The notes under the pieces are model-generated. The model was not told where the DNA came from, searched no databases, and saw only the letters and a program-made list of their open reading frames with translations. A DNA stretch of 64,000 nt from Escherichia phage ECML-606-1. Below are positions 7,499 to 30,095 of the stretch, piece after piece. Position 1 is the stretch's first letter. The number at the start of each line of letters is the position of its first letter. Location: the sequence record OL631484.1. The stretch is one strand, 5' to 3'. Position numbers and translations under genes: made by a program.

Positions 7499-7574
7499 GA
7501 TTCTGTAGCTACAGCGGTAGAGCGGCGCACTGTTAATGCGCGGGTCGCTGGTTCGAATCCAGCCAGAATCGCCA
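7499..7574 (+). tRNA. tRNA-Asn (anticodon GTT)
   Basis: hand-folded 76-nt cloverleaf: acceptor GATTCTG/CAGAATC, anticodon stem GCGCA/TGCGC with loop CTGTTAA, T-loop TTCGAAT, encoded CCA. Confidence 0.9.
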
Positions 7575-8299: not shown

Positions 8300-10915
8300 T
8301 TAATCGTCACCTTTCGAAATGAAGCCGGAGCAGCCAATATCCTCCGGCTTCACCTGCATCATGATCTCATGGCAGGATCTGGTCTCCGGGTCGTAGTTCA
8401 CACAGCGCCCGCAAACATCCCCGCGATACTTCACGTTGTTCACCTCATCCATGTAGCTCACCAGCGTCTGATCGACGCCGATATCCAGCGGGCTCAGTCG
8501 CTCGATCTTCACCTGCGGGGCATCCGGCAGAATAAACGTACTGGTGCCATGGGCGCGACTCCATGCGACATCGCACAGCAGGTTTGCGTAGGAGAAGTGG
8601 GGATCGATGCCGATTTTCTTCACGCTGCGCTTGTACTGGTTCGTTTCCTCGTCCTTCTCAGCCACCAGCGCCGTTTTGGTGAAGTGCGTGAACATTACCG
8701 GGGCCACGGCTTCCACGCGCGTGACGCCCTTCTCACGAATCTCCTGCACCAACCCCTGAGGGTCTGGGATGAGGCAGATTGGCTCGTCGGCAGTGAAGCG
8801 GGCCATTGAGACCTGCATACACTTATACTGGTCAATGCGGACGGTGTAGCGATCCTGTTCGTTCTCGTCGGTGCGCACATCGGACTTGTCCAGCTTCATG
8901 CTGTCATTCCACTGGATCATGCCATCCGCCACGGTGCCGAAGCTGTTACAGATGAATACCCGGCCTTTGTGACGGTTGGCGAAGCGCTTGGCGTCGTTGT
9001 AGTTCGGGTTGATTTCCACCACGCAGCAAGCCACGCCGTACTGGTTCATCAGCTCGCTACAGCGGGCAAACGGATCCTCGCTGTAAATCATTTCGATGTG
9101 GACAATTGCTTGGTGGCCGGAGGGCAGTCGCTCCTTGATAACCACCACGTTAAACTGGCCCATCTGGTCAATACCCATGTAGCAGTTATCCGCGCGGGAC
9201 TTCCACTGCACGCCAAAACGCAGGCCATGCTTAACGCAATTCGCCAGGTGTTCCAGCGTTACCGGAACCAGCGACGGATCGAGGAACGGCTTGCCCAGCT
9301 TACGGTTATAGAAGTTTTTCATATCCGTAGCGTTGTTGAAGGCGGAAATAATCTCGCCGGGGCTGATTGTCGGTGACAGGAACTGCGGGAAGTGCGCCGA
9401 CCGGATGCACATTTCCCCTTCCTCATTCTCCGGCGCATCCGGGATCCATTCCCCGCGCTGCGTGTCCTCAATCCATCCTCCGCAGCTGTAGCAGACATAT
9501 CGGTGGCGTCTGGTGTCCGGGTCGTACTTAATGCACTGCGGGAAATAGTCATCCAGCGGTTTCTTTTCGAGGCAGTGCGGGCATTCGGTATGGAAACGGT
9601 ACTGGGATCCCAGCTTGTACCAGTGGTGGATATCGGAGTCGGGCCAGTTGGCGGTGGAGCCCATCAGGCTGTAACGGATCGGGGATGCAGATAGACGCTC
9701 GCGCGTTTTCTCCATCTGCTCCAGTGACATTTCCTGCACCTCATCGAAGCTCAGGACATCCATCGGGATGGATTCGGTAGTCGCGCGGCCCGATGTCCAG
9801 CTGAATACAAACATCGCCTCACCGATGCGACGGGTACGCACGTTACCCTCACCTTTCTTGCGACCGCCGCCTTTCTCATCGTCCTGCACCATCAGCGCAT
9901 GTACCTCAGGTACGGTGCGCACAATCGGCATGAAGCGCTCGGAGGACTTGATCCCCGCCAGCGCGGCATCCGGCAAGAACATGCCGATAGTCATCGGCTG
10001 GAAGCGCAGGCCAAGGTAAATAACAGCGAGCATTTCCATGACGGTAAAGCCCACCTGCGCACACTTCATCAGCACCAGCGTTTTGCGGTATGCCTCCTCG
10101 ACGGTGCTGGGGATCTGGTCATAAATCCACGCCATCGCCGGGCGGTTGTCCAGCTTGAACGGGCGACCATCCACTTTGAGGCCCGTTTCGCCCAGCCGGA
10201 TGCACCACTCCAGAAAGGTCTCGTTTGGCTTGAGGATTTTCTGCGAGGCGGTCAGGACAAAGGTCGTATCGAGGAATTCAGCATCGTAGCGCTGGCGCTT
10301 CTCATCCCCGGTCGTGTTGTCCATTTTCTCCAGGAATGCCGCGTCGAGATTATGGCGGTTGGTCTCGGTCGGCACGCGGCGTCGGAACCAGTCAGGATCC
10401 AGCTCGGCCTCCATCCACAGGCGATAAAAGTCGTGATTCTTCCCGTAGGCACCGGACAGGAACCATGCACTGCCGTGGTACTCGCGCAGGCACTCAGCCA
10501 GCGTGTCACCCCAGATCTGCATGAAGTTGTAAATCTCGCGCACGTCATCAATGATCATCAGGCCATACTGCCCATTAACCTCTTTCAGGCTGTCAGCCGC
10601 GTAAAGGTCAATGTACTGGCCCGATAGCAGCGTGATGCGCCTGCTGGTTGAGCTCTTGATGAGGGGATCGATGGCCTGTACGATCCGCGTGCGAACCTCC
10701 ATAAGGTCTTTGTACGTAGCGCTCATCCACATCGCCGGGGCAGGGTTATTCATGATGCCCTGTTTCCCAGCCACCAGCGCCTCTATGCCAAGCGTTGTTT
10801 TTCCTGCCTTCTCGCCCATGGCAATAACGTTAAAACGCGCCGCACGGTCGATACAGACCTGCAACGCGTCATTGAGAATGGGCAGCTTAATTTTAACGGT
10901 CTTTTGGCGTGCCAT
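8300..10915 (-). CDS. terminase large subunit, lambda GpA-like, with N-terminal P-loop extension
   Basis: 871 aa; KCAQVGFT (res 284-291) resembles the gpA KSARVGYS P-loop; additional Walker A GEKAGKTT (34-41) and Walker B LMIIDDV (119-125); C-terminal Cys clusters; ATG at 10915 with AAGGA SD. Confidence 0.65.
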   Translation of the reverse strand: MARQKTVKIKLPILNDALQVCIDRAARFNVIAMGEKAGKTTLGIEALVAGKQGIMNNPAPAMWMSATYKDLMEVRTRIVQAIDPLIKSSTSRRITLLSGQYIDLYAADSLKEVNGQYGLMIIDDVREIYNFMQIWGDTLAECLREYHGSAWFLSGAYGKNHDFYRLWMEAELDPDWFRRRVPTETNRHNLDAAFLEKMDNTTGDEKRQRYDAEFLDTTFVLTASQKILKPNETFLEWCIRLGETGLKVDGRPFKLDNRPAMAWIYDQIPSTVEEAYRKTLVLMKCAQVGFTVMEMLAVIYLGLRFQPMTIGMFLPDAALAGIKSSERFMPIVRTVPEVHALMVQDDEKGGGRKKGEGNVRTRRIGEAMFVFSWTSGRATTESIPMDVLSFDEVQEMSLEQMEKTRERLSASPIRYSLMGSTANWPDSDIHHWYKLGSQYRFHTECPHCLEKKPLDDYFPQCIKYDPDTRRHRYVCYSCGGWIEDTQRGEWIPDAPENEEGEMCIRSAHFPQFLSPTISPGEIISAFNNATDMKNFYNRKLGKPFLDPSLVPVTLEHLANCVKHGLRFGVQWKSRADNCYMGIDQMGQFNVVVIKERLPSGHQAIVHIEMIYSEDPFARCSELMNQYGVACCVVEINPNYNDAKRFANRHKGRVFICNSFGTVADGMIQWNDSMKLDKSDVRTDENEQDRYTVRIDQYKCMQVSMARFTADEPICLIPDPQGLVQEIREKGVTRVEAVAPVMFTHFTKTALVAEKDEETNQYKRSVKKIGIDPHFSYANLLCDVAWSRAHGTSTFILPDAPQVKIERLSPLDIGVDQTLVSYMDEVNNVKYRGDVCGRCVNYDPETRSCHEIMMQVKPEDIGCSGFISKGDD

Positions 10916-13860: not shown

Positions 13861-13890
13861 GGGAAATAAAAAGCCCGGACAGTACCGGGC
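13861..13890 (-). terminator. rho-independent terminator
   Basis: GCCCGG-ACAGTA-CCGGGC hairpin followed on minus strand by TTTTTATTT. Confidence 0.5.
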
Positions 13891-13898
13891 TGGAAGGT

Positions 13899-14153
13899 TT
13901 ACCACTTGAATTGTCGCTGATCGTCCTCGCAAAACTCGAACAGCTTATGCACGCCCCAGTAAACAGCCCCGGCGGCGACGACCACCATCACAAGGCCCAT
14001 CAGCATGGATCCGAATCCCAGAGCCGCGAGGCCAGAAGTGATGCCTGCTGCACTCAATCCTGAAACCTTCCCCAGAAGGCTGATCAGCAGGATAGGCGTT
14101 CCTGCCGCTGCTGCACCTGCTGTGACTTGTTTTGCCACTGTGTACCCGTTCAT
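13899..14153 (-). CDS. small membrane protein (two predicted TM helices; holin-like topology)
   Basis: 84 aa, two hydrophobic segments, charged C-terminus. Confidence 0.4.
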   Translation of the reverse strand: MNGYTVAKQVTAGAAAAGTPILLISLLGKVSGLSAAGITSGLAALGFGSMLMGLVMVVVAAGAVYWGVHKLFEFCEDDQRQFKW

Positions 14154-14581
14154 TACCGCCCCTTTTTATGTGTCGCTGAGCGGTGCTGTCCGCTGTAGCG
14201 ATGGTTTCCGTATGCCTGCTCGTCACGCCAGTTAATCTGCTGCTGACGCTTACCGGAATAAGCGGAGTAAGGCGGTTTTGGCTGGAGTTTAGCCATTACA
14301 TGCCAAACGTCATAGCAGGCATCATGGAAACGGCGATCCGTTGTCGAGTCCTTGAAATTGCTGTACATCATTTCCGCGACGTACTGCGCCAGCATGGATT
14401 GCAGCTCCTCGCGGTTGACGAACACTCGGAACTGGTAATCGCGGTGATCGTGCGTGACCACTTCTTTGGTCGGGAAGTATTTGTTCAGATGCTCTTTACG
14501 GCGAGCACGTACTTGGATCACTTCCGGGTCTTGTTTGTCTACGACAGCAGACAGGAAGCCATCAGATAAAATCAGCCACAT
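14153..14581 (-). CDS. hypothetical protein
   Basis: 142 aa; ATG at 14581 with GAGGA SD; promoter immediately upstream. Confidence 0.45.
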   Translation of the reverse strand: MWLILSDGFLSAVVDKQDPEVIQVRARRKEHLNKYFPTKEVVTHDHRDYQFRVFVNREELQSMLAQYVAEMMYSNFKDSTTDRRFHDACYDVWHVMAKLQPKPPYSAYSGKRQQQINWRDEQAYGNHRYSGQHRSATHKKGR

Positions 14582-14617: not shown

Positions 14618-14646
14618 ATAATACGTCATGCGTGCCGTATGGTCAA
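14618..14646 (-). promoter_or_regulatory. sigma70-like promoter TTGACC-N17-TATTAT with palindromic operator in spacer
   Basis: minus-strand hexamers; spacer contains ACGGCACGCATGACGT. Confidence 0.45.
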
Positions 14647-15507
14647 TCTTTTTTCTTACCTAAATACGCGTCAAGCACCATTTGGTCGGGCTTCATGTTC
14701 ATTAGCTCGCGCAGCTTGTTTTTTGGTACCAGCTGGACGGCCTGCGTTTCCCAGCCCATCGCTACCGGGGAACCACCGACGCGCTTCGCCAGATACATGC
14801 GAGAAACAGACGTGGTGCGCTCAAAGTCACCCAGCACGCCAGTGATCTCGATCTGTAGCCCGGACTCCTCCCATGTCTCTTTGATGGCGTTCTGCTGGAG
14901 CGTGAGCCCCGGCTCAGTGCCACCCTTCGGGAAAGTGTTCTGGTAGCCGCCGAAAGCGTTGGTCGGGCTGATAATCCACACGCGACCGTCAGGCTCCTCA
15001 ATGATGACGCCGGACGCTGGACGCTTCCCGGCTGGTACCATTAACGGCTGCTCGGTCATCTGTTTGGTGCCCTTCACAAAGGCCCAGCCCGCGTCGGTTT
15101 TCGGTGCGCCAGTCCACGGCGCGACCGGGACGCCATTCAGCTCCTGCGGTGCTGCACCATTAGGCGTGAAGGTGGCCACCTCGTTGCTCGCGGCCCACGT
15201 TGGCGCTTCGGTCGGTTTGCTCGGATGGTTAACCACGACGCGGTTGCCCTTCTCACCCAGTCGCGGATGGTGGACAATCTTCGTCGGTAGTCCTTTGCTG
15301 GCGGTAGTCCTGTGCGTGCCATACGGCGTCGTGGGCAGCGCTGGCTTGCGGTAATAGGCTTTCTTGGCCTGAGGCTTCGCAGGCGCTTTGGGGGCCGCAG
15401 GCGCATCAGGTTTGGCTGCTGCCTTCCCGTTGTCGTGCGGCTTCACCCATACGCCATCGCTCCGGCGATAGCCCTTCACCTGCGCTTTCAGGAAAAGTTT
15501 AGTCATT
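14643..15507 (-). CDS. Nudix hydrolase (putative)
   Basis: Nudix box GGTEPGLTLQQNAIKETWEESGL (REx2EExGU with R to K); Pro/Ala/Lys-rich N-terminal region; ATG at 15507. Confidence 0.55.
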
Positions 15508-15981
15508 GCCTTCCACTCCCAGCATCCATTGCGCCATGGATTCGACGCTGGACTGCACGCGGGCGGCGATTTCTGCATCCTTCCCGCCCTTGTCAAATGC
15601 CTGGTAAATACTGATCGCAAAGCGGGCCATCGCGTGCGCGACGATCAGCGCGGGATCCGTTTCATCCTTCGCCAGCCCCTTCACGTTCTGGATCCAGCGC
15701 GGCAGCGCGAAGTCATTCCAGCCCGGCAGCACGCTAAAGCCTGCGGTGTTACCCACAAAGATGTTAGCGGTGTTCAGCGCCTGCGCACGGTCGGCCTCCA
15801 GCGCTTCTTTCTCAGTCATCTGGTTGGCCTGCACCTTAGCGATGCGTCCCACGATGTCCTTGGCGAAGTTATTCAGGATGGTGCGTGCCACGTTGATATC
15901 GCCCAGATAAACGCTGCCATCAGCAGCGTTCAGACCTTCGATAAACCACGTTGGATCAGTATGTCGGTTCAATTCAGCCAC
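15499..15981 (-). CDS. hypothetical protein
   Basis: 160 aa; GTG at 15981 with AAGGGGGC SD; overlaps Nudix start by 9 nt. Confidence 0.4.
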   Translation of the reverse strand: MAELNRHTDPTWFIEGLNAADGSVYLGDINVARTILNNFAKDIVGRIAKVQANQMTEKEALEADRAQALNTANIFVGNTAGFSVLPGWNDFALPRWIQNVKGLAKDETDPALIVAHAMARFAISIYQAFDKGGKDAEIAARVQSSVESMAQWMLGVEGND

Positions 15982-15990
15982 AGAGCCCCC

Positions 15991-18900
15991 TTATACGCTC
16001 GGCAGGATGATACATTCCACAACGGTCATGCCGCTGCCGCCAAAGCCATCGGCGTCCTTAGTCCCCGATTCGTTCACCTTAGTGATGAGTAGGCGGGTAT
16101 TAGGTGGCAGGATAATTTCTTTTTCCCCGGTATGGTGCGAGATAGATCCACCACTCGGAAGCGAGCCAGCGCCCGCATAGATACCTTTTACGCCGGGGCC
16201 TGCTGTCATTTTGAGGTGAATATTACCACTCCACACGTCTGGACTGATAGACGTGGACATAATTGCAGGCTCCATGATGACCTTGCCGACCGACGCTTTC
16301 AGCTTGGAGAGATCACCGCTGCCCAGACTGAATTTGCGCCCGAACGTGGTACCCGGCGAAATTTCATGGCCCATACCAGACAGCGCCTGCGCTGCTGCTT
16401 TCGCTTCTGCGCTTGGGTTGCCCTTCCACAGTCCGCTGTTCATCTGCTTATAACTGCTACCAGTATACGCCTGCACGGCCTGCTTTTGTGTCATCGGCAG
16501 CTTTTCCCACACTTCCTGTGCTGCTTTGGCATAAGTGTTTGTGGTCAGCGTGCCAGCCTTGAAAGTGGTTTTAGTAATGCCAAGGTCTTCCGGCTCAACA
16601 ATCCCCGGATGGCCCAGCACCAGCAGGTTCCCGATCTTGTCTGCATCGTTACCGCTCCAGTTTTCCGGCTTGTATTCTTCGTGCATCGAATACAGCGGGT
16701 GATCGCCGCCGATACGGAACTGCTCGGCTTCATGCCCGGTAAGCTGGCTCTTAATCTCGTTAATCGCCTGCATCGCGTAGCCTTTGATGTGCTGCGATGG
16801 GTGATCGAGCACTGGCACCTGTCCGGTAACAGCTCCGGTGTCTTTGTCAAAGGTTGGCGCGGTCAGGCCGCGAATGGCTTCCGGGTCTCCGGTCAGCGCC
16901 GCAGAATAAATGGCCTGCGCCGCGTCGTGGTTCCCTTTGTTCAGGAACTCTTTGGAGGACGGGCCGGATTTGCCAACGCCAGACCAGTTGAGGAAGTCAG
17001 GCGGGGTACTGATTTTCTCCGGCTTGAATTTCTGCATTTTGATGATCTGCTCGGCTTCCGGGTACTTCTCAGCCAGATACTCTTTGCGCTTGATGAGCGT
17101 TTCCACCAGCTCTTTTTTGGCCTTCTCATCGCCCGGCCCATACTGGTTGACCATGTGCGCGATTTTGGCGTCGGAGATAGCCAGCACCTTGGAGACAGAC
17201 GCGGCGATATCGGCCTCAGTCATGCCACCGAAGACGGCGGCGCTGTTCGCGTTCATCTTCGGATCCATCAGTGACTCCAGCTCCTTAACTACCGGGCCAA
17301 ATTCTTTCTTCGCACCCTGCGCACGGAACATCAGCGAGCCGCCCGCATCGACGCGGTGAATGGTGCCGTCATCTTTCAGCTGCACGTTGTCTTTCGCCAG
17401 CCCCACGACATCCCAGTTACCCAGCCACGCATCAACGGCAAAGCCTTCCAGCATACCCTTGGCCTTCGCCAGCGCTGCATGGGTTTTGGCCTTCTTGATG
17501 TTCTCCCACTTCGAGGCAATAGCCATTTTCCCGTCCTTGGTGACGATCATGGCGTCCTGCGCGGACAGGCCAGCGGCGCTATACAGTTTCGCTGCCAGCA
17601 CCTCAGCCTTGGCGTGCTCCTCGTTATCCGGGAACTTCACATACCATTCCTGCCCATCGGCGTCCTTCATTTTCATGCCTTCATTCGAACCGCCTTGGTT
17701 GCCCCCGGTCACTGTCCACTCATCGACGCTGATCGGCTCTTTCTTCTTCCACTGGTACTTTTTGACCTCCATCGGGCCATCAGCGGCAAGGCCATTCTCT
17801 GCCGGGTTGCTGGTCGCGGCGGTAGCATTCATCAGCTGCGCGACGCCATTCATAGCATAGGTGCCATTCACCTCAGGGTTATAACCGGACTTAACCTTGA
17901 TCCCATTAGCCATCAGCATCATCGACGCATATTGCGCCAGCGCCTTTTTACCCGGCGCGGTCGGGCCATACTCCGTTGAGACCTTAATTTTCATCCCAAA
18001 CTCGCCATAAATCAGCATCGAACCATCGGCTTTCTGCATGATGACGCCTTTGGTGCCGCCGCCTTTGGTCAGCTTGGCTTTGAGGTTATCTACATATTTC
18101 ATGTAGTGATCCTGCTGCCAAGCGCTCAGGCCAAGCGCAGCGAAGTCAGGTGCTGGGATCTCGTCAGGATTGGCCCTAACCCAGCGCCCGTTTTTCAGGA
18201 TCAGCATCCCATTGGCACCCGGCTTCATGTCGCCTTCTTTCGGGCCATCGCCTTCTTTCTGGCCCTCGTCGGCTTTCTTAGCATCTTCTTCGGCTACGGT
18301 GTTTTTGATAGCCGTCAGGATCCCTTCGATAGCCACAGGAGTAAAGTCGTTGATGATAAGCACGCTCTTAATGGTGCTGACCGCATCCACTTTGTCCGGG
18401 TTGGCGTCGTAGTATTCCTTGCACGCCACCGACGCCTTGACGACCTTTTGCAGCCCGGTTTTGGTCTCCGCGATGCTCTTGATGTCGTCCAGCAGTTTCA
18501 GGTCGATATTACCCAGCTCCGGCGCGGCAGGTTCAGGCGCAGGCGCAGGCTCCTCAGCTCCGGTGATCTGATCCTGTACAAAGGTCATGGTGCTGATCGC
18601 GTAATCCGTCATGCTCATCTTGACCACATCGGTGCCCTGATTCGCCATCAGCGCATACGCGGACTCTTTGACGCTGTTCAGCACGGCCTCTTTCATTTCC
18701 GGCGAGTCGGTGTACTTCGCCAGCATCGCCATCGCTGCCAGACCATCCAGCGCATCTGCATCCGCCATGCTATCGCCCTTGTAACTGGCTTTCGGGATCC
18801 CCTGCGGGACGCCGTGCATGTTGATGCTGTCTTTCAGTATGGACTGGAGGACAGGGATATGGGCCACGTTATCGCCTGCGGCCTTCACGATGTCCTGATA

Positions 18901-21900
18901 GGTGGCAGGGTTGTCGCCTTTCTTCGCCACGTAATCCTGTACAGCCATCAGCGTTTCGAGGTTGTCTTTGGCGTTGTTGAAGACCAGCCCAAGGTCATAC
19001 ATGTTTTTCGGCTTGCCCGGCGCAGCGGTCAGCTTGTCCAGCACCTCAGCCATGTACTCCTTGTACTTGGTACCGTTGATCGTGGTGCTCGGCGTCACGT
19101 TCTGCTCATATTTCATAGCCTCAATGAGCAGCTTTTTGCTGTTCTCATCCTTCGCCAGTGTTGCAGCGATGGCGTAGCCCTGAAAATCAGTTGCCTCGGT
19201 CGAGTAGAAACCAACGTCCGGCTTAATCGGCAGGTTGAGCGGCTTGCCATGCTTTTTGAAGTAAGCCTGACCGATTTCAGACGCAGCGTAGACGTGCCCG
19301 CTGTTCATTTTCAGGATATTGTCGATAACAGTCGTGTACGCGCCCTTATCGCCATGGTTATCCTTGATGAATTCCAGACCGATGCTGGTCGCATCATCGC
19401 CGTTCGCGCCAGCGAGGGCCTGTTTGAGCGCCACAATCTCGCTGCCCGCGCTGCCATTGGCTGAGGTCTCAGGCATATCCTGCTGTAAGATCCAGTGCCC
19501 ATTATGGAAGACCAGAATACCGCCTTTACCCTGCTTGGTATCACCTTCTTTCGGGCCATCCTCTACCAGCCACTTATTGACCTCCTGCTGGTACAGTTTA
19601 ACCTGCACAGCAGCTGGCTCTGAAAGGTGAAGCTCGCTCAGCTCATTAAAGTGCTTGGCGATCACATCAGGATCTGATTCTTTGCCTTTGTGAACTTCTT
19701 CGGCAATGACGTTATAGAGGGTCTGCACTTTCGTGCCATAGGTTTTCACCGTGTCGCTGGTTGGTGATACCAGCGGTTTTTCTGGCTCAGTCCCGTAAGT
19801 CTCACTCCACCACTTACCATAGGCTTTCTTGCCAGCGATAAAGAACTCATTCGCCAGCTCGTTAAACCCATTGTCCTTCATGGCCTCAGCCAGCACCACC
19901 AGCTGCGGCGCATCATGCCCATTCGCCGTCATCCAGTCGCCAGCAATCGCGTCGGCCTGTTTTTCGTCCTTGGCATCTGTCAGCGCATCAAAGGCGCTTT
20001 CCCACATGGCGTAATCATTCAGGATCGCTTTCTTCTCCTGCTTACGCTCATGTTTGGTGGCAATCTGCTCGGATTTCGCCGCAGCCTGAGACTTCTCGGC
20101 CCATGAATCGTACAGCTTCCCGACGCTGGACTCGGAGAAGGCCAGATCGCTACCGTAATAGGTAGACGCCTGCTCAATGAATGCCTCGCCTTTTGTCTTC
20201 GCCCACTCGTTGAACTCAGCCACATCGGCAAAATCCGGCAGCTGCGGCTCAGGGGTTGGCGCACGCTCCTGCTTGATCTGCGGTGGCGTCGGCAGGGATT
20301 TCACGGAGATATCGCCCAGCTCTTTCTTGGCGGCGGTCACGGCTTCGATGATCCACGCGGACAGATCAACCTTCTGGAAGGCATCAATCAGGTTCTGGTC
20401 ATCACGGATCACTGTCACCATGTCGTTGATGTTGTCCACAGCCAGCGCCCAGTTACCCGCGTTGAGGTCATTCTGGATGTCCTCACAGATGCCGTCGATA
20501 AACGCATCACCAGTCTGCGGAGGATTGGAGAAAGTCTTCACTCCCTCAGGCTTAGGCGCAGCAGCAAGGCCCAGAGACTCCGCCAGATTGACCGCAGGCT
20601 CTTTGCCAGCCATTACCTGCTGGTAAACCTCATTCTGCGTGTTGGAGAAGCCGGAGATATGGCCCCAGTCGCCCTTCTCGTTAACCCACATACCAGATCC
20701 CGGATTCTTCGGATCCGCGACGATGACTGCGCTGGTATTGGTCGGGTAAACGCCTGCGTCTGGAGTCGTGGACAGCACGCCATTCCACATGTTCTTGATG
20801 ACGTTTTGCTGCTTCTGGGTCAGGTGATTCGGCTTGCCCAGCTCCACCAGCTCGGTCGGGTACTCGCTATGGTGATAGTCGGAAATGTAGCCCAGATTGT
20901 CCGGGGTTTTGGTGTTGCCACCAAAGCCGATCAGTTTCAGGTACTGTCCCGCTTGGAACGGCTTAGCCAGCGGCTCACCCTTCTTGCTTATAGGCCATGC
21001 GGTCGCGTGCCCCATCAGCACTTTCAGGTACGGCTTACCGTCCTTGTCGTAGGTCTGGATGATTGAGCCTGCGGGCAGGTTCGGCATATCGGAGATCGAC
21101 AGCTTCTGGCCCTTTTTGAACTCACCAGCGACAGGCTGATCCTTGAGCGGCTCGCCAGTCTCCTGATTGTGCCAGCGACCGTCTTTGAAAACCTGCATCC
21201 CGTTTTTGCCCATGCGGGTATCACCTTCCTGCGGGCCTTCCTCAGCCCGGACGGTTTTCTGCTGCTCAACCTCTGCGCTGGCCTTCTGATCCTTTTCTGC
21301 CTGGCTAAACTGGCCCAGCATTGGATGCACGGCGTCTTTGCCGATAACCACTTTGATATCCGGGTAGCCCAGCGCTGCCAGCGCGTTATTCGCAGCCTTG
21401 GCGACTTTGAGCCCGTAGGTGTTTTTTCCGTATGTCATCGCCAGAATGCCGTTGATGTTGCCTACTTCGCCAGCGGCCTTGATAGCGGCGATCTGCGCGT
21501 TGTAGCTCTTGGCATTCTTAATGTTCTCCGCGACGGCGAACTGGCTCCAGTCGATAGCGTCCATGGCCTTCTTCGACACGGATGCTTTCGGGGCTGGCTT
21601 GCCTTCGGCGGTGTCCGGCTGCGCCGGGGAGGTAGCGATGATTTCAACCGCGCTCAATGGGCTCGGCTCCTCGGACTGCACCAGCGGCTTATTCGGATTC
21701 TCACCCGTCAGCAGCGCCAGCTTTTGCCCGTAGAGGTTCAGCAGCTTTTTGCTGTTCGGGGTGATGCCCTTCCAGCTTTTCGCCTTGCTCTTGATAGCTT
21801 CCAGCTCCGCCAGACTGGTGGCGTCGATGACCTTCTGAGCCTGCGCCTCATACGCGGTGCGCACGCCAGTGGAGTTTTTGCCGGATTCAAATTTAGGCAT

Positions 21901-22764
21901 GACGATTTCGCCTGGCTTCGGTGCTTCGGCAGCAGGTGTTGAGGCTTTCTGGACTTCTTCTTTAGCTGCGTTTTTTTTCTCAGGTGAAGGAGACGGCCCA
22001 TCTTTTGGCATAATAAGGCTTAGTTTTTTTGCTCCACCCGGTTCAGTTTTAAAGTATCCAAACTGCGTACCGTAATTCTCAATCGCGTGCAGCTGGTGCT
22101 GTTTTAAATCACCAATCTCAATAGTGATGACGTTATTTTTTACTTTGTATGCTTCAATCGGTGGCAGACCTAGGTAACTCTCAATTCCAGAAACAATGGC
22201 TTGTTGTTTGGCTGTCAAATTACCTGTAGCTGGTTTTGTTGCTGCCTTTGCCTCTTGCGCTACGGCTTCAATGGCCTGCTCAGCCATCTGATCGACGGTC
22301 TCAGGCTCTCTCTCGTATGTGGCGATGGCAGGGTGCTCACCCGCTTTCTGGCCCGCGCTGACCTTCTCCTGCGAGCCCATTTGCTCCAGCAGATAGTTGG
22401 CAATCGCCACCAGCTTTTTACCGTGGGTGTTCACGCCATAGGATGATCCCAGAATCGCCGCGATATCGCCGTTGGCAGCGTGCTGCAACAGGTTCGGGAC
22501 GTGTTTCTGGTTGAAATGCTTAATGTCTTTGTTGGTCGCCTCTTTCTCAGCAGGATAGAGCAGCTGGCTCGACTCCTCCTTAGGCATGGCGTAAGGCTTA
22601 TGGCCTTTGCCACCAGCTTTAGGGTGCGCGGCTTTCGGGGCGTTCTTGACGCCCTTCATGTCCGGCGTGGTTTTCTTCCAGCGCCCATTGATCAGAGCAT
22701 AGCCCGCTTGGTGGGCGAATTTTTGATTAAGTGCTTTTGCGAGGACAAGCATGGTGGCCACCAT
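15991..22764 (-). CDS. giant virion-associated protein with C-terminal ADP-ribosyltransferase-like domain
   Basis: 2257 aa; C-terminus has TFGRKF, IMSTSIS (STS) and GEKEIILPP (ExE); recurring internal motifs EGDTKxGxxGxxVFxNGRW and ILGSSYGVNTHG / ILAMTYGKNTYG. Confidence 0.65.
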   Translation of the reverse strand: MVATMLVLAKALNQKFAHQAGYALINGRWKKTTPDMKGVKNAPKAAHPKAGGKGHKPYAMPKEESSQLLYPAEKEATNKDIKHFNQKHVPNLLQHAANGDIAAILGSSYGVNTHGKKLVAIANYLLEQMGSQEKVSAGQKAGEHPAIATYEREPETVDQMAEQAIEAVAQEAKAATKPATGNLTAKQQAIVSGIESYLGLPPIEAYKVKNNVITIEIGDLKQHQLHAIENYGTQFGYFKTEPGGAKKLSLIMPKDGPSPSPEKKNAAKEEVQKASTPAAEAPKPGEIVMPKFESGKNSTGVRTAYEAQAQKVIDATSLAELEAIKSKAKSWKGITPNSKKLLNLYGQKLALLTGENPNKPLVQSEEPSPLSAVEIIATSPAQPDTAEGKPAPKASVSKKAMDAIDWSQFAVAENIKNAKSYNAQIAAIKAAGEVGNINGILAMTYGKNTYGLKVAKAANNALAALGYPDIKVVIGKDAVHPMLGQFSQAEKDQKASAEVEQQKTVRAEEGPQEGDTRMGKNGMQVFKDGRWHNQETGEPLKDQPVAGEFKKGQKLSISDMPNLPAGSIIQTYDKDGKPYLKVLMGHATAWPISKKGEPLAKPFQAGQYLKLIGFGGNTKTPDNLGYISDYHHSEYPTELVELGKPNHLTQKQQNVIKNMWNGVLSTTPDAGVYPTNTSAVIVADPKNPGSGMWVNEKGDWGHISGFSNTQNEVYQQVMAGKEPAVNLAESLGLAAAPKPEGVKTFSNPPQTGDAFIDGICEDIQNDLNAGNWALAVDNINDMVTVIRDDQNLIDAFQKVDLSAWIIEAVTAAKKELGDISVKSLPTPPQIKQERAPTPEPQLPDFADVAEFNEWAKTKGEAFIEQASTYYGSDLAFSESSVGKLYDSWAEKSQAAAKSEQIATKHERKQEKKAILNDYAMWESAFDALTDAKDEKQADAIAGDWMTANGHDAPQLVVLAEAMKDNGFNELANEFFIAGKKAYGKWWSETYGTEPEKPLVSPTSDTVKTYGTKVQTLYNVIAEEVHKGKESDPDVIAKHFNELSELHLSEPAAVQVKLYQQEVNKWLVEDGPKEGDTKQGKGGILVFHNGHWILQQDMPETSANGSAGSEIVALKQALAGANGDDATSIGLEFIKDNHGDKGAYTTVIDNILKMNSGHVYAASEIGQAYFKKHGKPLNLPIKPDVGFYSTEATDFQGYAIAATLAKDENSKKLLIEAMKYEQNVTPSTTINGTKYKEYMAEVLDKLTAAPGKPKNMYDLGLVFNNAKDNLETLMAVQDYVAKKGDNPATYQDIVKAAGDNVAHIPVLQSILKDSINMHGVPQGIPKASYKGDSMADADALDGLAAMAMLAKYTDSPEMKEAVLNSVKESAYALMANQGTDVVKMSMTDYAISTMTFVQDQITGAEEPAPAPEPAAPELGNIDLKLLDDIKSIAETKTGLQKVVKASVACKEYYDANPDKVDAVSTIKSVLIINDFTPVAIEGILTAIKNTVAEEDAKKADEGQKEGDGPKEGDMKPGANGMLILKNGRWVRANPDEIPAPDFAALGLSAWQQDHYMKYVDNLKAKLTKGGGTKGVIMQKADGSMLIYGEFGMKIKVSTEYGPTAPGKKALAQYASMMLMANGIKVKSGYNPEVNGTYAMNGVAQLMNATAATSNPAENGLAADGPMEVKKYQWKKKEPISVDEWTVTGGNQGGSNEGMKMKDADGQEWYVKFPDNEEHAKAEVLAAKLYSAAGLSAQDAMIVTKDGKMAIASKWENIKKAKTHAALAKAKGMLEGFAVDAWLGNWDVVGLAKDNVQLKDDGTIHRVDAGGSLMFRAQGAKKEFGPVVKELESLMDPKMNANSAAVFGGMTEADIAASVSKVLAISDAKIAHMVNQYGPGDEKAKKELVETLIKRKEYLAEKYPEAEQIIKMQKFKPEKISTPPDFLNWSGVGKSGPSSKEFLNKGNHDAAQAIYSAALTGDPEAIRGLTAPTFDKDTGAVTGQVPVLDHPSQHIKGYAMQAINEIKSQLTGHEAEQFRIGGDHPLYSMHEEYKPENWSGNDADKIGNLLVLGHPGIVEPEDLGITKTTFKAGTLTTNTYAKAAQEVWEKLPMTQKQAVQAYTGSSYKQMNSGLWKGNPSAEAKAAAQALSGMGHEISPGTTFGRKFSLGSGDLSKLKASVGKVIMEPAIMSTSISPDVWSGNIHLKMTAGPGVKGIYAGAGSLPSGGSISHHTGEKEIILPPNTRLLITKVNESGTKDADGFGGSGMTVVECIILPSV

Positions 22765-22796: not shown

Positions 22797-23042
22797 CTAA
22801 TTAACGTCTTTCACCTTCCTACCGAAGCGCTCCACGCACGCGAGAAACGCCTCCTGTTTCGTGTGGCAATACTCCGACAGCATCGTGGAGTGTTTGCCGT
22901 CATGAAACTGGATCTCCCACTTCGCGGATCCGGTCTTTGGCGGGCCGGGCCAGTCAGCGGCGGCGTCGTATACCGCCTGCTGCTCCGGTGTCATCTGGAA
23001 ACTCAACGGCCTGCTGCCTTCTTGAGCTCCATGACGATGCAA
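22797..23042 (-). CDS. hypothetical protein
   Basis: small ORF in minus-strand gene chain; start uncertain. Confidence 0.3.
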   Translation of the reverse strand: MHRHGAQEGSRPLSFQMTPEQQAVYDAAADWPGPPKTGSAKWEIQFHDGKHSTMLSEYCHTKQEAFLACVERFGRKVKDVN

Positions 23043-23443
23043 TGAAGCGTGTCCAGCTGTTCATCGGTCGCATGACTCAGCAGCTGGCTCAGGCCAAATC
23101 CACCGCTCATTTCATTCTGGATAACGCTGCGCATCGCTGCCTTGCGCTGCTCGTAGGCAAAGTCAGCCTCGTCACGGTAAACGTCAAGCGCCGGATATCC
23201 ACTGGTCTGCGGGACGTGGTTACGATTCCCCCAGTCCTTAATGGCAATGCGCTCCTGCCAGCATTCCGGCACGCTATTGCTCTCTTTGGCGCGGTCAATG
23301 TCTGATTGCCGGGCGACGTAAAGCCATTTGGTTCCTTTGCGGACAACAATCATGATCCCGCGTGGAGGGCTGCGCCTATCGCGCGGGCCAATAAACAGGG
23401 TGTCGCCAGATTTCAGGGCTTTCAGGTCGGTTTCTTTCAGCAT
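23003..23443 (-). CDS. hypothetical protein
   Basis: 146 aa; ATG at 23443 with AAGGA SD. Confidence 0.45.
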   Translation of the reverse strand: MLKETDLKALKSGDTLFIGPRDRRSPPRGIMIVVRKGTKWLYVARQSDIDRAKESNSVPECWQERIAIKDWGNRNHVPQTSGYPALDVYRDEADFAYEQRKAAMRSVIQNEMSGGFGLSQLLSHATDEQLDTLHCIVMELKKAAGR

Positions 23444-24694: not shown

Positions 24695-24723
24695 AAAAAA
24701 GCCTCACCTTGGGTTGGTGAGGC
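24695..24723 (-). terminator. hairpin plus U-run whose 3' arm carries the SD of the next gene
   Basis: GCCUCACC-loop-GGUGAGGC then U6 then ATG at 24694. Confidence 0.45.
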
Positions 24724-24724
24724 T

Positions 24725-26664: not shown

Positions 26665-28080
26665 TCACTTTGGGGCAGTGGTAGGCTTCGGCTCGACCGA
26701 CGCTGGTTTGCCTGGCTGATTGCGGATCGTGGTAGCCAGCGCTCCCGGTCGCGTCGCAAAGTAGGTGTAACGCCATTTCCCGGTCTGGGTCTCCCAGTAT
26801 TTCACGCGCCAGCCTGAATCCTGATCTTCCCACGCCTCAGAGTAATACGCGGGCTTAGAATCGTTATCAGCATTGCGCTGCGCGATAGCTGCGGCCTCTC
26901 CGGTCGGCTTCCAGCCGTGCAGGTTGATCTCCTCACCTCCACGGTTCTGGATATGGCGCTGGTATTCAGCGCGAAGGGTGTCCTCAATTCTCGCCAGCTC
27001 AGCGGTTGCCTTACGGCCTGCTGCCGTACAGTAGAAGTGTGTCAGCTGCTCGAAGCGGTCAAAGCCGTTGGTCATGTTCAGGAACACTTTGGCCTTGCGG
27101 TCATACATCAGCTGGAGGTGTGGCTCCATCCATCCCTGCGTCGGGCGCTCTTTCATGTGAATGTGATACTCAGCCGTTTCTGTCCGGTCGTGCGGGATCA
27201 CATCCAGACGGTACAGATAGCCATGACGCCAGCAGCGCTTGTCTGTACGCAGGGTGCCATCGCTCAGCTCCTCCTCCGCGAGCTCCAGACGTTTCTCGCT
27301 GCCCGGCTTCACATCGGACAGGCCCAGCGAAACACGGCGGTGGACTTCCGCGATCATGCGCTGCGTCGTGTAATGGGGTTGCAGGGTGATGACCAGACCG
27401 CTGATTTTGGCACGCAGCGGGGCCAGCGGGTGCAAGCGCTTCACCACGTCCTCAATGGTTTCATCGCGCTGCTGCAAATGCAGCTGCCCGGACTCCAGCG
27501 GCTCGTAATCATCAGGGGCGGCGTGATCCAGTGTCAGCGCATCGACGGTCTTACCCTGCACCATACGCATACCACGGCCCAGCTGCGGGGCATGTACTAC
27601 CTGACTAACAGCCTCTTTCTGCTGCTCGGTCAGCTCAGGCTCCTCTACCGCGCGGGCCATCAGCTTTTGCAGGTCTGGGGTTGGGTTGGCTGGCGCTTCC
27701 AGCACTTCCTGAGGCACGACTGGACGCGTGCCACGGCCTGCTAATTGTACCCAAGGCTCACCGCCAGAAGGGAATCGGTCATTCAGATTGAGCACGTACT
27801 CAGCGTGGGCGAAGGCATCAGCCAGAGTCATCACCGGATCGATGTGAATGGTCTTGCCGTCATAAATCAGGTCAATGGGTTGGTTTGCAGCGACGGCACG
27901 GCCTACGGCGTTCAGGAGCGCTTCACCTTCTGCGGCGTGGAGTTGAGGCACTTCTTGCTGCTGGGCTTTTACCATTTCCAGACAGGACATAAACGACTCA
28001 GCTTTTGCCTCAGTAAACTTCTCATTGTGCAGGGCGTTAAATACAGCAACAGCGCGGGCAATAACGGATAATTTCGACAT
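26665..28080 (-). CDS. hypothetical protein (471 aa)
   Basis: long ORF, ATG at 28080; no motif recognised. Confidence 0.5.
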   Translation of the reverse strand: MSKLSVIARAVAVFNALHNEKFTEAKAESFMSCLEMVKAQQQEVPQLHAAEGEALLNAVGRAVAANQPIDLIYDGKTIHIDPVMTLADAFAHAEYVLNLNDRFPSGGEPWVQLAGRGTRPVVPQEVLEAPANPTPDLQKLMARAVEEPELTEQQKEAVSQVVHAPQLGRGMRMVQGKTVDALTLDHAAPDDYEPLESGQLHLQQRDETIEDVVKRLHPLAPLRAKISGLVITLQPHYTTQRMIAEVHRRVSLGLSDVKPGSEKRLELAEEELSDGTLRTDKRCWRHGYLYRLDVIPHDRTETAEYHIHMKERPTQGWMEPHLQLMYDRKAKVFLNMTNGFDRFEQLTHFYCTAAGRKATAELARIEDTLRAEYQRHIQNRGGEEINLHGWKPTGEAAAIAQRNADNDSKPAYYSEAWEDQDSGWRVKYWETQTGKWRYTYFATRPGALATTIRNQPGKPASVEPKPTTAPK

Positions 28081-28558: not shown

Positions 28559-28587
28559 AATTATTTACGGCATACGTGACGCATCAA
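28559..28587 (-). promoter_or_regulatory. sigma70-like promoter TTGATG-N17-ATAATT with CGTCACGTATGCCG element in spacer
   Basis: minus-strand hexamers; overlaps stop codon of methyltransferase gene. Confidence 0.35.
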
Positions 28588-30095
28588 AAGGCATCGTCAT
28601 CTTCATCAGGATCCGGCAGGTGCCGATCCTCGGTCTCCTCCGGGAATTCCTCTCCGGTGTAGAAGTGGACGGCCTTACGCCCGGTCAGGTTCTGCCAGCG
28701 ACGAATCGCCACATCAGCAAAGCCCAGATCGAGCTCCATCACGCGTGCGCATACGCCCATTCGCTCGGCGGCCACCAGTGAAGTACCAGAGCCGGAGAAG
28801 GGATCCACCATGATGTCATTCAGGCGCACGGTGTTCTTCATCATGCGCTCCCACAGCTCCACGGGCTTCTGCGTCGGGTGCAGGTCGCTGCGGTCAGGAC
28901 GCGGCACGCTGACCACGCTGCCCAGCATTGACTCCACCTTGGCGTCGCCTTCCACCCGCATGATGAGATCGCCGTACTGGAAATACCAGTTACCCTCGGC
29001 ATCCTGTTTGAATGGGCTTGAGTCGCCAAACTCCGCGACGGTCGTTTGCTTCCTGCCACCGTGCCAGCGGTGCTTGGCACCCTTGCGCCAGCCGTACAGG
29101 ATTGGTTCATGGATGCTTTGGAAGTCAGCCATGCCCAGTGTCATGCTGTTCTTCTTCCAGATGACATTCTGGGAGAAGTGGAAACCGACCTTTTCAAACG
29201 CCCAGCGCAGGCCATGGGCCATCTTGTCGGAGTGGCTGATATAGGTCACGCCGCCCGGCTGCATCGCGTCATAGGCGCAGCTCAGGACATTGACGAGGAA
29301 CTGATTAAAGTCCTCCTCGTTTTTCCAGTCGTTAGCGATCCCGCCAGTGCGCGAGCGCTCGCCTCCGATGGCCTTATCCATGCGCTTATTCTTCTTGCCC
29401 ACATCGACGTTATACGGGGGATCGGTCAGCATCATGTTGGCCTTCTCGCCCTGCATCAGCGCCAGCCAGCTTTCCGGCTGCTCAGCATCGCCAACATACA
29501 GGCGATGAGCGCCCAGCACCCACAAGTCGCCCGGACGGCTCTTTGGCTCGTCAGGAAGCGGTGGCGCATCATCGGGATCGCTGTCACCTCCTCCTCCCTC
29601 CATCGGCGGCAGCTTCATGATCTCGTCCAGCTGCTCAGGGTCGAAGCCGATAACATCCAGATCGTAGTCCAGATCAGCCAGGGCATTCATTTCGATGCGC
29701 AGCATGTCCATGTTCCACTCGGACGCCCGGCCCAGCTGGTTATCCGCGATGATGTACGCGCGGCGCTTAGCCTCATCCCAGCCAGTGCAGTCCAGCGTCG
29801 GCACCATGCCAATAGGGATCGGTGTGCCATCCGGGAAAGCAATTTGCTTGCCCTCGCTGTACAGCTTCATCGCTGCCAGCTGGCGTCCATGGCCTGCCAC
29901 AATCCCTTGCTCATCGACGAGGATGGCGTTAGTCCACCCGAATTCAAGCATTGACGCGGCGACCTTCTGGACGTGCGCCGGGCTATGGTCGTTTGAGTTG
30001 TTCACGTAGGGGATGAGGCTATCAACCGGGCGCAGCCGGATCATCGGGGGGATCACGTCCAGCCCCAACATCTTGTTAAAATCTTTATCAGCCAC
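28584..30095 (-). CDS. DNA methyltransferase with N-terminal ParB-like nuclease domain
   Basis: ParB/Srx-like VAGHGRQLAA; methyltransferase motif IV LTDPPYNV before motif I VDPFSGSGTS (beta-class N6A/N4C order). Confidence 0.7.
   Translation of the reverse strand: MADKDFNKMLGLDVIPPMIRLRPVDSLIPYVNNSNDHSPAHVQKVAASMLEFGWTNAILVDEQGIVAGHGRQLAAMKLYSEGKQIAFPDGTPIPIGMVPTLDCTGWDEAKRRAYIIADNQLGRASEWNMDMLRIEMNALADLDYDLDVIGFDPEQLDEIMKLPPMEGGGGDSDPDDAPPLPDEPKSRPGDLWVLGAHRLYVGDAEQPESWLALMQGEKANMMLTDPPYNVDVGKKNKRMDKAIGGERSRTGGIANDWKNEEDFNQFLVNVLSCAYDAMQPGGVTYISHSDKMAHGLRWAFEKVGFHFSQNVIWKKNSMTLGMADFQSIHEPILYGWRKGAKHRWHGGRKQTTVAEFGDSSPFKQDAEGNWYFQYGDLIMRVEGDAKVESMLGSVVSVPRPDRSDLHPTQKPVELWERMMKNTVRLNDIMVDPFSGSGTSLVAAERMGVCARVMELDLGFADVAIRRWQNLTGRKAVHFYTGEEFPEETEDRHLPDPDEDDDAF

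Follow-up and report, generated by a model that had tools for sequence, protein, structure and literature searches.

A giant protein of Escherichia phage ECML-606-1 with a CtkA-like kinase fold and a predicted C3/VIP2/Alt-class ADP-ribosyltransferase as a probable injected effector

We analyzed a 64,000-nucleotide stretch of Escherichia phage ECML-606-1 (OL631484.1), hereafter the window, and found that a giant protein encoded on its minus strand is likely to be a packaged and injected polyvalent effector with two enzymes, a kinase and an ADP-ribosyltransferase (ART), which works with a co-encoded Nudix hydrolase. Observed here were the identities of the domains, their intact and conserved catalytic residues, an exchange of ART versions and the linkage of kinase, ART and Nudix.

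The giant ORF, which a preliminary description of the window had claimed while omitting the strand, is indeed real and uninterrupted, with 2257 codons from the first ATG at 22764 (15991..22764, minus strand, as for all features below). Translation probably starts at the second ATG (22752), for a protein of 2253 aa, in line with the GenBank annotation and with the homologues, whose sequences begin with MLVLAKAL. Enterobacter phage phiT5282EW matches the window at 99% identity, and phiT5282EW_00045 matches the giant protein at 99%. The phage carrying the gene is a myovirus of about 95 kb. Downstream of the giant gene lie those for the tail fibre, terminase, portal, protease and capsid, and in four genera it is found shortly before the genes for tail fibre, terminase and portal. 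The preliminary description placed it in the structural module, but it does not lie within a run of head or tail genes, and methyltransferase and small early-type genes adjoin it. The block holding the gene is flanked by terminator-like hairpins predicted by a consensus scan: one, with a T-run, closes the block before the tail-fibre gene (13872..13891), and the other lies upstream of the block (24700..24724) and overlaps a promoter-like site (24753-24725).

The C-terminal ~180 residues are, as judged from profiles, invariant catalytic residues and a predicted fold, an R-S-E ART of the C3/VIP2/Alt class (aa 2080-2257, 15994..16527), in agreement with the preliminary description. The motifs quoted there, AYTGSSYKQMNSGLWKG (aa 2099-2115), TFGRKF (aa 2140-2145), IMSTSIS (aa 2168-2174) and GEKEIILPPNTRL (aa 2213-2225), are all present, and they are not due to chance, since their columns are conserved across dozens of homologues and the ART region scores above the curated Pfam threshold (PF03496, 41.3 bits; gathering cut-off 23.4). 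At the profile level, the domain also matched the Alt-like PHROG 802 (E 3.8e-7). The predicted catalytic residues are R2143 (16336-16338), S2170-T-S2172 (16249-16257) and E2214-K-E2216 (16117-16125), and R2143, S2170/T2171 and E2214/E2216 do not vary across 22 aligned family sequences, diverged versions among them. Furthermore, the structural comparison with ART folds that had been suggested at the outset, performed with an AF2 model containing the domain (pLDDT 89.9), returned Plx2A, VIP2, Certhrax, CDTa, C3bot, SpvB and iota-Ia (E 1e-8 to 5e-10). An E-x-E motif predicts an arginine acceptor, as in iota, C2, VIP2 and SpvB, and arginine specificity is likewise predicted for the phage ART. The domain is preceded by a conserved linker domain (aa 1915-2075, 16540..17022) bearing the motifs PPDFLNWSG...GPSS and HPSQH (16789-16803), which has near-invariant columns in alignment A2 and is well folded in the predicted model.

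Besides the strand, the preliminary description had overlooked a kinase domain, the swapping of ART versions and a linked Nudix gene, and its reading was to that extent incomplete. The CtkA-like protein-kinase-fold domain (aa 1668-1906, 17047..17763), delineated by alignment A1, a predicted model and Foldseek, is the most conserved segment of the protein and is covered in 86 of 90 homologues, and no Pfam or NCBIfam model covers these residues. Its AF2 model (pLDDT 94.9, pTM 0.92) best matched CtkA in a Foldseek search of the PDB (E 1.8e-7, TMq 0.67), with eukaryotic-type kinases and HipA next, and a profile search of PDB sequences also ranked CtkA at the top, at a marginal E of 0.021. K1710 (17635-17637), E1721 (17602-17604), N1783-x-D1785 (17410-17418), D1792-N1793 (17386-17391) and D1806-x-G-G (17338-17349) are invariant in alignment A1; the catalytic set is intact, as expected of an active kinase, a catalytic role that is suggested by fold-level similarity at 13-15% identity. 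The domain recurs in no fewer than 4,793 sequence clusters. Nearly always an R-S-E ART accompanies it in the same protein, in one of three versions that replace one another, and it is tied to a Nudix hydrolase through either fusion or a conserved neighboring gene.

The N-terminal part of the protein opens with a conserved module (aa 1-160, 22285..22764), covered in 66-79 of 90 non-close homologues and found in about 150 of 233 family proteins, which is a candidate encapsidation or delivery region. Its signature GYALINGRWKK (aa 21-31, 22672-22704) is a half-copy of the EGDTK...NGRW motif, and adds a fourth occurrence to the three copies reported previously, which we located as GPQEGDTRMGKNGMQVFKDGRWH (aa 510-532, 21169..21237; conserved in homologues), GPKEGDTKQGKGGILVFHNGHWI (aa 1070-1092, 19489..19557) and GPKEGDMKPGANGMLILKNGRWV (aa 1507-1529, 18178..18246) and which punctuate the protein. 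The two ILGSSYGVNTHG-like repeats noticed earlier were also recovered, as GxNTYGKK helical modules at aa 88-146 (22327..22503) and aa 424-482 (21319..21495) that share 37% identity (E 5e-5). The middle region (aa 881-1480, 18325..20124) is variable, being common to only 7-20 of 90 homologues, and a family search with it gave no match, while a conserved pre-kinase module occupies aa 1530-1667 (17764..18177). Altogether, about 1,600 residues of the protein are Ala/Lys/Glu-rich and carry no enzymatic signature.

Tightly coupled to the 3' end of the giant gene is a 160-aa ORF (15499..15981), kept in four related phages, whose end is overlapped by the start of the gene for a 287-aa Nudix hydrolase (14643..15506; PF00293, E 2.6e-12), and this gene order of giant, small ORF and Nudix is conserved. 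The N-terminus of the Nudix protein carries a GY..DGxWVK signature, as does that of the giant protein, a sharing seen in four phages (two observed against 0.005 expected). In addition, P0090 and P0094 have a Nudix module fused with kinase and ART in a single chain, and the Nudix protein encoded here matches it at 51-52% identity; both also contain the second GxNTYGKK module.

The homologues of the giant protein span about 1,250 to 2,930 aa, and include proteins of lytic phages of soil Pseudomonas, Gordonia and Mycobacterium as well as related proteins on plasmids. Those in Yersinia, Pseudomonas and Aeromonas phages already carry an ART annotation in GenBank, one member of the family being named 'ADP-ribosyltransferase toxin', and ART-PolyVal, InPase, LPD1, LPD38 and Mu F domains occur in relatives that have the N-terminal or the kinase module in common with it. 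The suggestion of an undescribed system is not sustained, since the giant protein is a member of a class known before, the large polyvalent effector proteins defined by Iyer, Burroughs, Anand, de Souza and Aravind in 2017 (PMC5512222), and head-packaged Alt/VIP2 ARTs have also been published (PMC9503650).

In the pathway that we consider likely, the giant protein would be made together with the adjacent 160-aa protein and the Nudix hydrolase, packed into the head of the ~95-kb myovirus, and ejected into the cell along with the DNA. Before phage gene expression, the kinase (with ATP) and the ART (with NAD+) would then attach covalent modifications to host proteins, so as to seize host functions or disarm defenses, and the Nudix enzyme may process ADP-ribose- or NAD-derived nucleotides. 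The N-terminal region, probably needed for capsid incorporation, precedes variable helical cassettes split by the recurring 23-residue motif, followed by the CtkA-like kinase, the conserved linker domain and the presumably arginine-specific (E-x-E) C3/VIP2/Alt-class ART. For ECML-606-1 itself, we infer packaging and ejection, as well as enzymatic activity, arginine specificity and targets. Virion association is plausible, since the homologue gp129 of Yersinia phage fHe-Yen8-01 (54% identity, 95% coverage) is annotated as 'phage particle associated protein', and other proteins with the kinase domain are annotated as HK97 portal or are Mu F fusions (P0098 and P0099); in the giant protein itself, a domain search yielded neither a Mu F nor a portal or peptidase domain. 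The setting of the gene is also the context described for head-packaged Alt/VIP2 ARTs and Nudix proteins beside terminase and portal genes in myoviruses (Iyer et al. 2022, PMC9503650).

Several features count against packaging, as a ~240-kDa protein must unfold or extend to exit via the tail, and the methyltransferase and early-type neighbors, together with the hairpins that set the gene off from the tail-fibre and terminase genes, would suit an unpackaged enzyme that acts only in the producing cell, like T4 ModA/ModB, and remodels transcription, translation or defense in middle or late infection. The particle-associated label itself, a database annotation, is not strictly virion-specific, because the same Yersinia record places it on the large terminase, methyltransferases and a DNA-binding protein, which are clearly non-structural in part. 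However, gp129 and the homologues of both downstream partners, gp130 (160-aa ORF) and gp131 (Nudix), bear this label while most neighboring small proteins do not, and the recurrence of the kinase module with portal and Mu F head proteins and the position kept upstream of terminase and portal in four genera further make such an unpackaged enzyme rather unlikely.

The very large size and the long non-enzymatic portion could instead indicate a mainly structural virion component with enzymes as add-ons, such as a tape measure, an internal core or a T7 gp15/gp16-like ejection conduit, and T7 gp16 and N4 vRNAP are precedents for ejected core proteins that bear enzymatic domains. This is quite improbable, since the tape-measure role is taken by a separate 926-aa transglycosylase-domain protein, encoded after the sheath and tube genes, whose length agrees with a tail of 142 nm in the relative Mecenats66, and since conservation is lowest in the non-enzymatic middle and the members vary in length, unlike a dimension-setting protein. 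We regard as more improbable still a toxin for other targets, either a eukaryote-directed virulence factor or a polymorphic toxin in bacterial or phage competition. In favor of it, every one of the nearest solved structures is a toxin of eukaryotic cells, with animal cells as the target of C3, VIP2, SpvB and CtkA; the exchange of three versions of the C-terminal ART recalls polymorphic toxins, and the GenBank name cited above points the same way. However, no secretion signal, receptor-binding domain or immunity gene was recognizable, an animal target is implausible for the lytic phages of soil bacteria listed above, and the likeness to toxins mirrors which ARTs were crystallized.

The injected two-enzyme effector that we favor resembles known systems in several respects. 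The C3/VIP2/iota-Ia/SpvB/Plx2A exotoxins (PF03496) have the same fold and the same order of motifs (Y-x-x-x-N helix, Arg, S-T-S, E-x-E), but the sequence identity is 15-24%, the phage protein has no secretion or cell-binding component, and the phage context suggests bacterial rather than eukaryotic targets. CtkA (JHP0940), the best structural match, is a Helicobacter pylori Ser/Thr kinase encoded on the ICE Hptfs3, whose type IV secretion system exports it (PMC7366825), a parallel to the proposed delivery of the phage kinase by a mobile element. It is, however, a stand-alone protein of 325 aa that is reported to act on human cells, whereas the phage domain, at 13-15% identity, forms part of a giant protein together with an ART. 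The Mu F/SPP1 gp7-type head proteins with C-terminal toxins (MuF polymorphic toxins) follow the same logic of a head-associated N-terminus with exchangeable C-terminal enzymatic cargo; P0098 and P0099, distant family members, join Mu F to the same kinase, while the giant protein lacks Mu F. T4 Alt is a head-packaged, injected ART of a myovirus, as the giant protein would be, and the R-S-E with E-x-E, the Alt-like PHROG 802 match and the proposed role in the first minute after injection are common ground. The giant protein is indeed far larger than Alt, as originally stated (more than three times), differs in its additional kinase and genomic context, and shows no BLAST-level similarity to T4-type Alt. 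The polyvalent kinase (PMC5512222), from Verrucomicrobia/Bacteroidetes phages, keeps His...Asp and has lost the C-lobe, whereas the kinase described here is CtkA-like, has no invariant His and retains the helical C-terminal subdomain. Otherwise, the polyvalent proteins of that study are equally very large polypeptides with several effector domains, phage-encoded beside virion genes and predicted to enter the host with the DNA, and their ART-PolyVal, InPase, LPD1 and LPD38 domains are those carried by homologues of the giant protein.

The giant gene of Escherichia phage ECML-606-1, at 15991-22764, proved, in agreement with the preliminary description, to be one open frame of 2257 codons without interruption. 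It lies on the minus strand; a plus-strand reading was rejected because of stops throughout. The true start is likely the second ATG, at 22752, which would give a protein of 2253 aa, since GenBank annotates that ATG and the homologues begin with MLVLAKAL. All of the motifs reported earlier were recovered from the translation, namely AYTGSSYKQMNSGLWKG (aa 2099-2115), TFGRKF (aa 2140-2145), IMSTSIS (aa 2168-2174) and GEKEIILPPNTRL (aa 2213-2225), together with the three copies of EGDTK...NGRW (aa 510-532, 1070-1092 and 1507-1529) and the two ILGSSYGVNTHG-like modules (aa 88-146 and 424-482; 37% identity, E 5e-5, by direct pairwise comparison). A BLAST comparison of the giant protein with itself did not report these internal repeats, which were confirmed by regular expression, conservation in homologues and the direct pairwise comparison. 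In full, the EGDTK...NGRW "punctuation" motif is a 23-residue element, GP(K/Q)EGDxKxGxxGxL(V/I)(F/L)xNG(R/H)W, and its positions fall at the borders between conserved and variable blocks. Outside the C-terminal domain, no match was obtained with Pfam (whole protein and six overlapping pieces, E<=5), NCBIfam or PHROGs. Recent acquisition of the gene was rejected, since the GC content is even (0.53-0.60) across the gene and its surroundings and the composition gives no sign of it.

We then investigated the C-terminus, for which a C3/VIP2-class ADP-ribosyltransferase (ART) had been proposed; the Pfam profile, the invariant R-S-E set and the predicted fold all support this assignment. Thus PF03496 (ADPrib_exo_Tox) scored 41.3 bits on aa 2080-2233, above its cut-off of 23.4 (E 1.3e-10, profile positions 6-179 of 196), and the R-S-E residues are present in order as R2143, S2170-T2171-S2172 and E2214-K-E2216, with R2143, S2170, T2171, E2214 and E2216 identical in all 22 aligned C-termini, a diverse sample of the family. 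A model of aa 1915-2257 built with AlphaFold2 (pLDDT 89.9) matched the ART toxin structures of Plx2A, VIP2, Certhrax, CDTa, a Listeria ART toxin, C3bot, SpvB and iota-Ia with E-values of 5e-10 to 1e-8, the TMt of this predicted, not solved, structure being 0.69 for Plx2A and 0.73 for the Listeria ART (8za7_B). In R-S-E ARTs, an E-x-E motif, in contrast to Q-x-E, points to arginine as acceptor, and from its motif the giant protein is expected to modify arginine.

The preliminary description had missed a predicted kinase domain, and the most conserved stretch of the giant protein is aa 1681-1920, not the ART, with 84-86 of the 90 non-close homologues aligning over it. The kinase segment is represented by no model in Pfam, NCBIfam or PHROGs, and a phmmer search with it against the PDB sequences returned no match; only the family profile gave the Helicobacter pylori kinase CtkA, as the top but marginal hit (E 0.021). 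Across 34 sequences, G1692, K1710, E1721, N1783, D1785, N1793, D1806 and G1808 are invariant. The AlphaFold2 model (pLDDT 94.9, pTM 0.92) adopts a bilobal kinase fold, and its best Foldseek match was again CtkA (E 1.8e-7, TMq 0.67, probability 1.0), with eukaryotic-type kinases, HipA and LepB ranking next; at E<=1e-3, 179 additional PDB chains were matched, most of them protein kinases and HipA. By their position in the model, the invariant residues can be putatively assigned to a Lys-Glu pair that binds ATP, a catalytic Asp/Asn loop and an Asp that binds metal, and we therefore predict that the domain is catalytically active. CtkA itself is a Ser/Thr kinase whose gene resides on a conjugative element and which is exported via the type IV secretion system of that element (PMC7366825). 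When 1.84 billion cluster representatives were scanned exhaustively with HMMER, 4,793 clusters were found to contain the kinase domain at E<=1e-3, and 3,850 at E<=1e-10; among the best 150 matches listed, the carriers are mostly 700-7,000 aa long, and some contain two to five copies. In a viral structure library, the phage proteins that contain the domain bear the annotations ADP-ribosyltransferase (one of them from a mycobacteriophage), Nudix hydrolase and HK97 portal.

Between the kinase and the ART lies a conserved linker (16540-17022, minus strand; aa 1915-2075), which is well folded in the model and nearly invariant at F1924, W1927, N1942, N1945 and H1988-P-S-Q-H1992...Y1996. It gave no family match, and it may provide a third active site or have a regulatory role.

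To describe the architecture of the family, we took a census of 233 proteins, composed of 99 whole-protein matches and the 150 best kinase matches with overlaps counted once. The kinase and a C-terminal R-S-E ART occur together in about 200 of these proteins, tandem kinases without an ART in about 30, and the N-terminal module in about 150. The ART itself exists in three diverged versions: type A with GE(K/D)E(I/L)ILPP, which is the version of the giant protein and the only one detected by Pfam, type B with GEGEGLLPP, and type C with GEKE(V/I)TTLP. Because the middle of the protein is variable (aa 881-1480 in the giant protein), the lengths range from about 1,250 to 2,930 aa; ART-PolyVal (PF18760), WGR and a second ART are among the insertions found in relatives. 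Furthermore, relatives with the N-terminal or kinase modules carry InPase, LPD1 or LPD38, or are fusions with Mu F: the homologues P0019, P0092 and P0097 carry PF18760, PF18823, PF18796 and PF18857, and two others, P0098 and P0099, carry PF04233. ART-PolyVal, InPase, LPD1, LPD38 and Mu F are domains that characterise polyvalent proteins (Iyer et al. 2017, PMC5512222). Although PF18760, PF18823, PF18796 and PF18857 were not found by Pfam in the giant protein itself, it is connected through its homologues to the architecture network of recognised polyvalent proteins. Like members of this class, which have at least two effector domains in one large polypeptide, it combines a kinase fold with an ART in a 2253-aa phage protein, and its gene is located near virion and late genes, a synteny held in four genera. 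A few homologues are plasmid-borne, which agrees with membership in the polyvalent class.

The genomic setting was examined by comparison with Enterobacter phage phiT5282EW (PQ352032, 95.5 kb), which is 99% identical to the window and whose genes are all annotated as hypothetical; phiT5282H of some papers is a different phage. Other relatives are phages of about 86-95 kb infecting Yersinia, Pseudomonas, Morganella and Aeromonas, of which the published Mecenats66 is a myovirus with a contractile tail of 142 nm (Mecenats66 paper). On the minus strand, a ParB-methyltransferase fusion and small genes are followed by the giant ORF, a 160-aa ORF (15499..15981) and a Nudix hydrolase gene (14643..15506), and then by two small ORFs and the genes of the tail fibre, the large terminase, the portal, the prohead protease and the major capsid protein, so that the giant gene lies upstream of these virion genes on the same strand. 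A tape-measure role was rejected, since that protein is a separate 926-aa, transglycosylase-bearing product encoded behind the sheath and tube genes, with gp017 as its Yersinia phage equivalent. A consensus-level scan placed terminator-like hairpins on both sides of the giant-gene block (24724-24700 and 13891-13872) and found promoter-like sites to be rarer than in shuffled sequences.

Several neighbouring features were also recorded. The ORF at 28584-30095 (minus) encodes a ParB N-terminal domain fused to a DNA methyltransferase; since its homologue in Yersinia phage fHe-Yen8-01 and a second methyltransferase there are both labelled "particle associated", co-packaging of these proteins as anti-restriction enzymes is suggested. 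The 471-aa ORF after it (26665-28080, minus) has no PHROG or Pfam match and, by gene position alone, appears to correspond to the "particle associated" gp119 of the Yersinia phage. Two genes upstream of the giant gene, the ORF at 23003-23443 (minus) shows a weak match to PF24203 (ProQ C-terminal-like; 25.8 bits, below the 27-bit cut-off). Directly 3' of the Nudix gene in four of four related phages is a 142-aa ORF (14153-14581, minus) that begins with MWLILSDGFLSAVV and has no family match, and the last gene before the hairpin at 13891-13872 encodes an 84-aa product (13899-14153, minus) with two hydrophobic Gly/Ala-rich segments, judged by eye to be likely a small membrane protein. The large terminase (8300-10915, minus) is unusually long at 871 aa, with an N-terminal extension, and is reported to belong to a distinct clade with an unusual variant of headful packaging (Mecenats66 paper). 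The gap that separates the terminase gene from the portal gene contains a tRNA-Asn(GTT) gene at 7499-7574, on the plus strand and opposite to all of its neighbours. In addition, the close relatives P0012, P0013, P0021, P0023 and P0042 are on contigs of about 100 kb in Salmonella enterica and E. coli isolate assemblies, a hint that cultured isolates may maintain these phages as episomes or phage-plasmids or in a carrier state.

The Nudix protein, encoded two genes downstream of the giant gene, is 287 aa long (PF00293, E 2.6e-12) and shares 51-52% identity with the Nudix modules fused to kinase and ART in the homologues P0090 and P0094 (E 1e-69 and 4e-63). The order of giant gene, ORF of about 160 aa and Nudix gene, overlapping or almost abutting one another, is kept in fHe-Yen8-01, Dolphis and Mecenats66. 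From the Nudix fusions, the conserved gene order and the structure-library annotations, we therefore propose that kinase, ART and Nudix form a recurrent functional trio. Since homologues of the 160-aa ORF occur within this phage group only and it gave no domain match, a role in immunity or as a chaperone is a guess.

The giant and Nudix proteins also have in common an element related to the punctuation motif at the extreme N-terminus, GYALINGRWKK in the former and KGYRRSDGVWVK in the latter, described by the pattern G-Y-x3-5-(D/N)-G-x-(W/Y)-(V/K)-K (22672-22704 and 15443-15475, respectively, both minus). This pairing is kept in four of four phages, and the strict pattern occurs in the window only at these two N-termini, as against 0.005 occurrences in shuffled sequences. 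The element might thus serve as a common signal, possibly for encapsidation, and the internal punctuation copies may be the joints of fused cassettes.

We next considered whether the giant protein is carried in the virion. Its homologue gp129 of fHe-Yen8-01, 54% identical across 95% of the length, is recorded in GenBank as "ADP-ribosyltransferase toxin" and bears the note "phage particle associated protein"; the Yersinia counterparts of the 160-aa ORF and of the Nudix protein are labelled in the same way, most small neighbours being unlabelled. Elsewhere, portal and Mu F head proteins occur as fusions with the kinase module, and the context of the giant gene matches that of the head-packaged ARTs and Nudix proteins of myoviruses (Iyer et al. 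2022, PMC9503650). The gp129 label, the kinase fusions and the gene context make a virion location plausible. The same label is also attached to terminase, DNA-binding and methyltransferase proteins in the fHe-Yen8-01 record, and our literature search found no publication behind it; that the giant protein is instead a non-packaged intracellular modifier like T4 ModA/ModB seems to us rather improbable. A mainly structural role is unlikely given that the non-enzymatic part varies greatly in both sequence and length. Similarly, the toxin folds matched by the ART might suggest a toxin directed at eukaryotes, which is unlikely because the family is spread among lytic phages whose hosts are soil bacteria and because the giant protein has no secretion or binding modules.

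Finally, we compared the giant protein with known systems. The earlier claim of an undescribed system was not borne out, since the ART is already annotated in the homologues from Dolphis, Jeremy, ST4 and fHe-Yen8-01 and large multi-domain injected effectors are a published concept (PMC5512222, PMC9503650). Literature searches on the phage names, on CtkA with phage, and on ART-kinase-Nudix in virions retrieved no description of this family. The kinase of Iyer et al. 2017 is a truncated His-Asp kinase, whereas that of the giant protein is CtkA-like and has no family model; in further contrast to the published polyvalent picture, the family exchanges three ART versions behind a constant kinase-linker unit and has a Nudix enzyme linked to it, by fusion or by gene neighbourhood. 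Mu F polymorphic toxins require an N-terminal PF04233, which was not detected in the giant protein (whole and in pieces, E<=5). As for T4 Alt, the Alt-like PHROG 802 matches the giant protein at aa 2076-2182 only (E 3.8e-7), and tblastn with the giant protein gave no match to T4-type phages at E 1e-5. Alt is packaged in the head through an N-terminal targeting sequence and modifies Arg265 of the RNA polymerase alpha subunit.

Injected phage enzymes act ahead of any phage gene being read, and to our knowledge almost none have been studied except T4 Alt and N4 vRNAP. The kinase-linker-ART unit and the Nudix enzyme could represent a distinct and as yet uncharacterised "first-strike" cassette of three enzymes that is very widespread in phages and plasmids, being present in at least 4,793 clusters. 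The N-terminal GY..(D/N)GxW(V/K)K hairpin of the giant and Nudix proteins would then be a capsid-targeting signal, the internal hairpin copies would be the places where packaged effectors, separate in the past, had fused into one protein, the kinase and ART would together hit one host target, or immune signalling based on NAD+/ADP-ribose, and the swaps of ART version would track an arms race with host defences. Taken as a whole, with the capsid signal, fusion joints and joint target included, we put this reading forward tentatively, as a possibility with the balance somewhat against it.

The family offers a tractable case of putatively injected enzymes in phages of Enterobacter, Yersinia and Salmonella, with two predicted enzymes that have clear catalytic residues, a linked Nudix partner and natural ART-swapped variants. 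Since giant proteins of phages and plasmids contain the kinase domain by the thousands and no family model covers it, naming and characterising it would help annotation widely. In relation to the known systems, the concept of the packaged, host-modifying polyvalent effector and the ART annotation in relatives are already established, the giant protein corrects the published generalisation that R-S-E ARTs are absent from polyvalent proteins, and the CtkA-like kinase, the exchange of ARTs and the Nudix link set it apart from the published picture.
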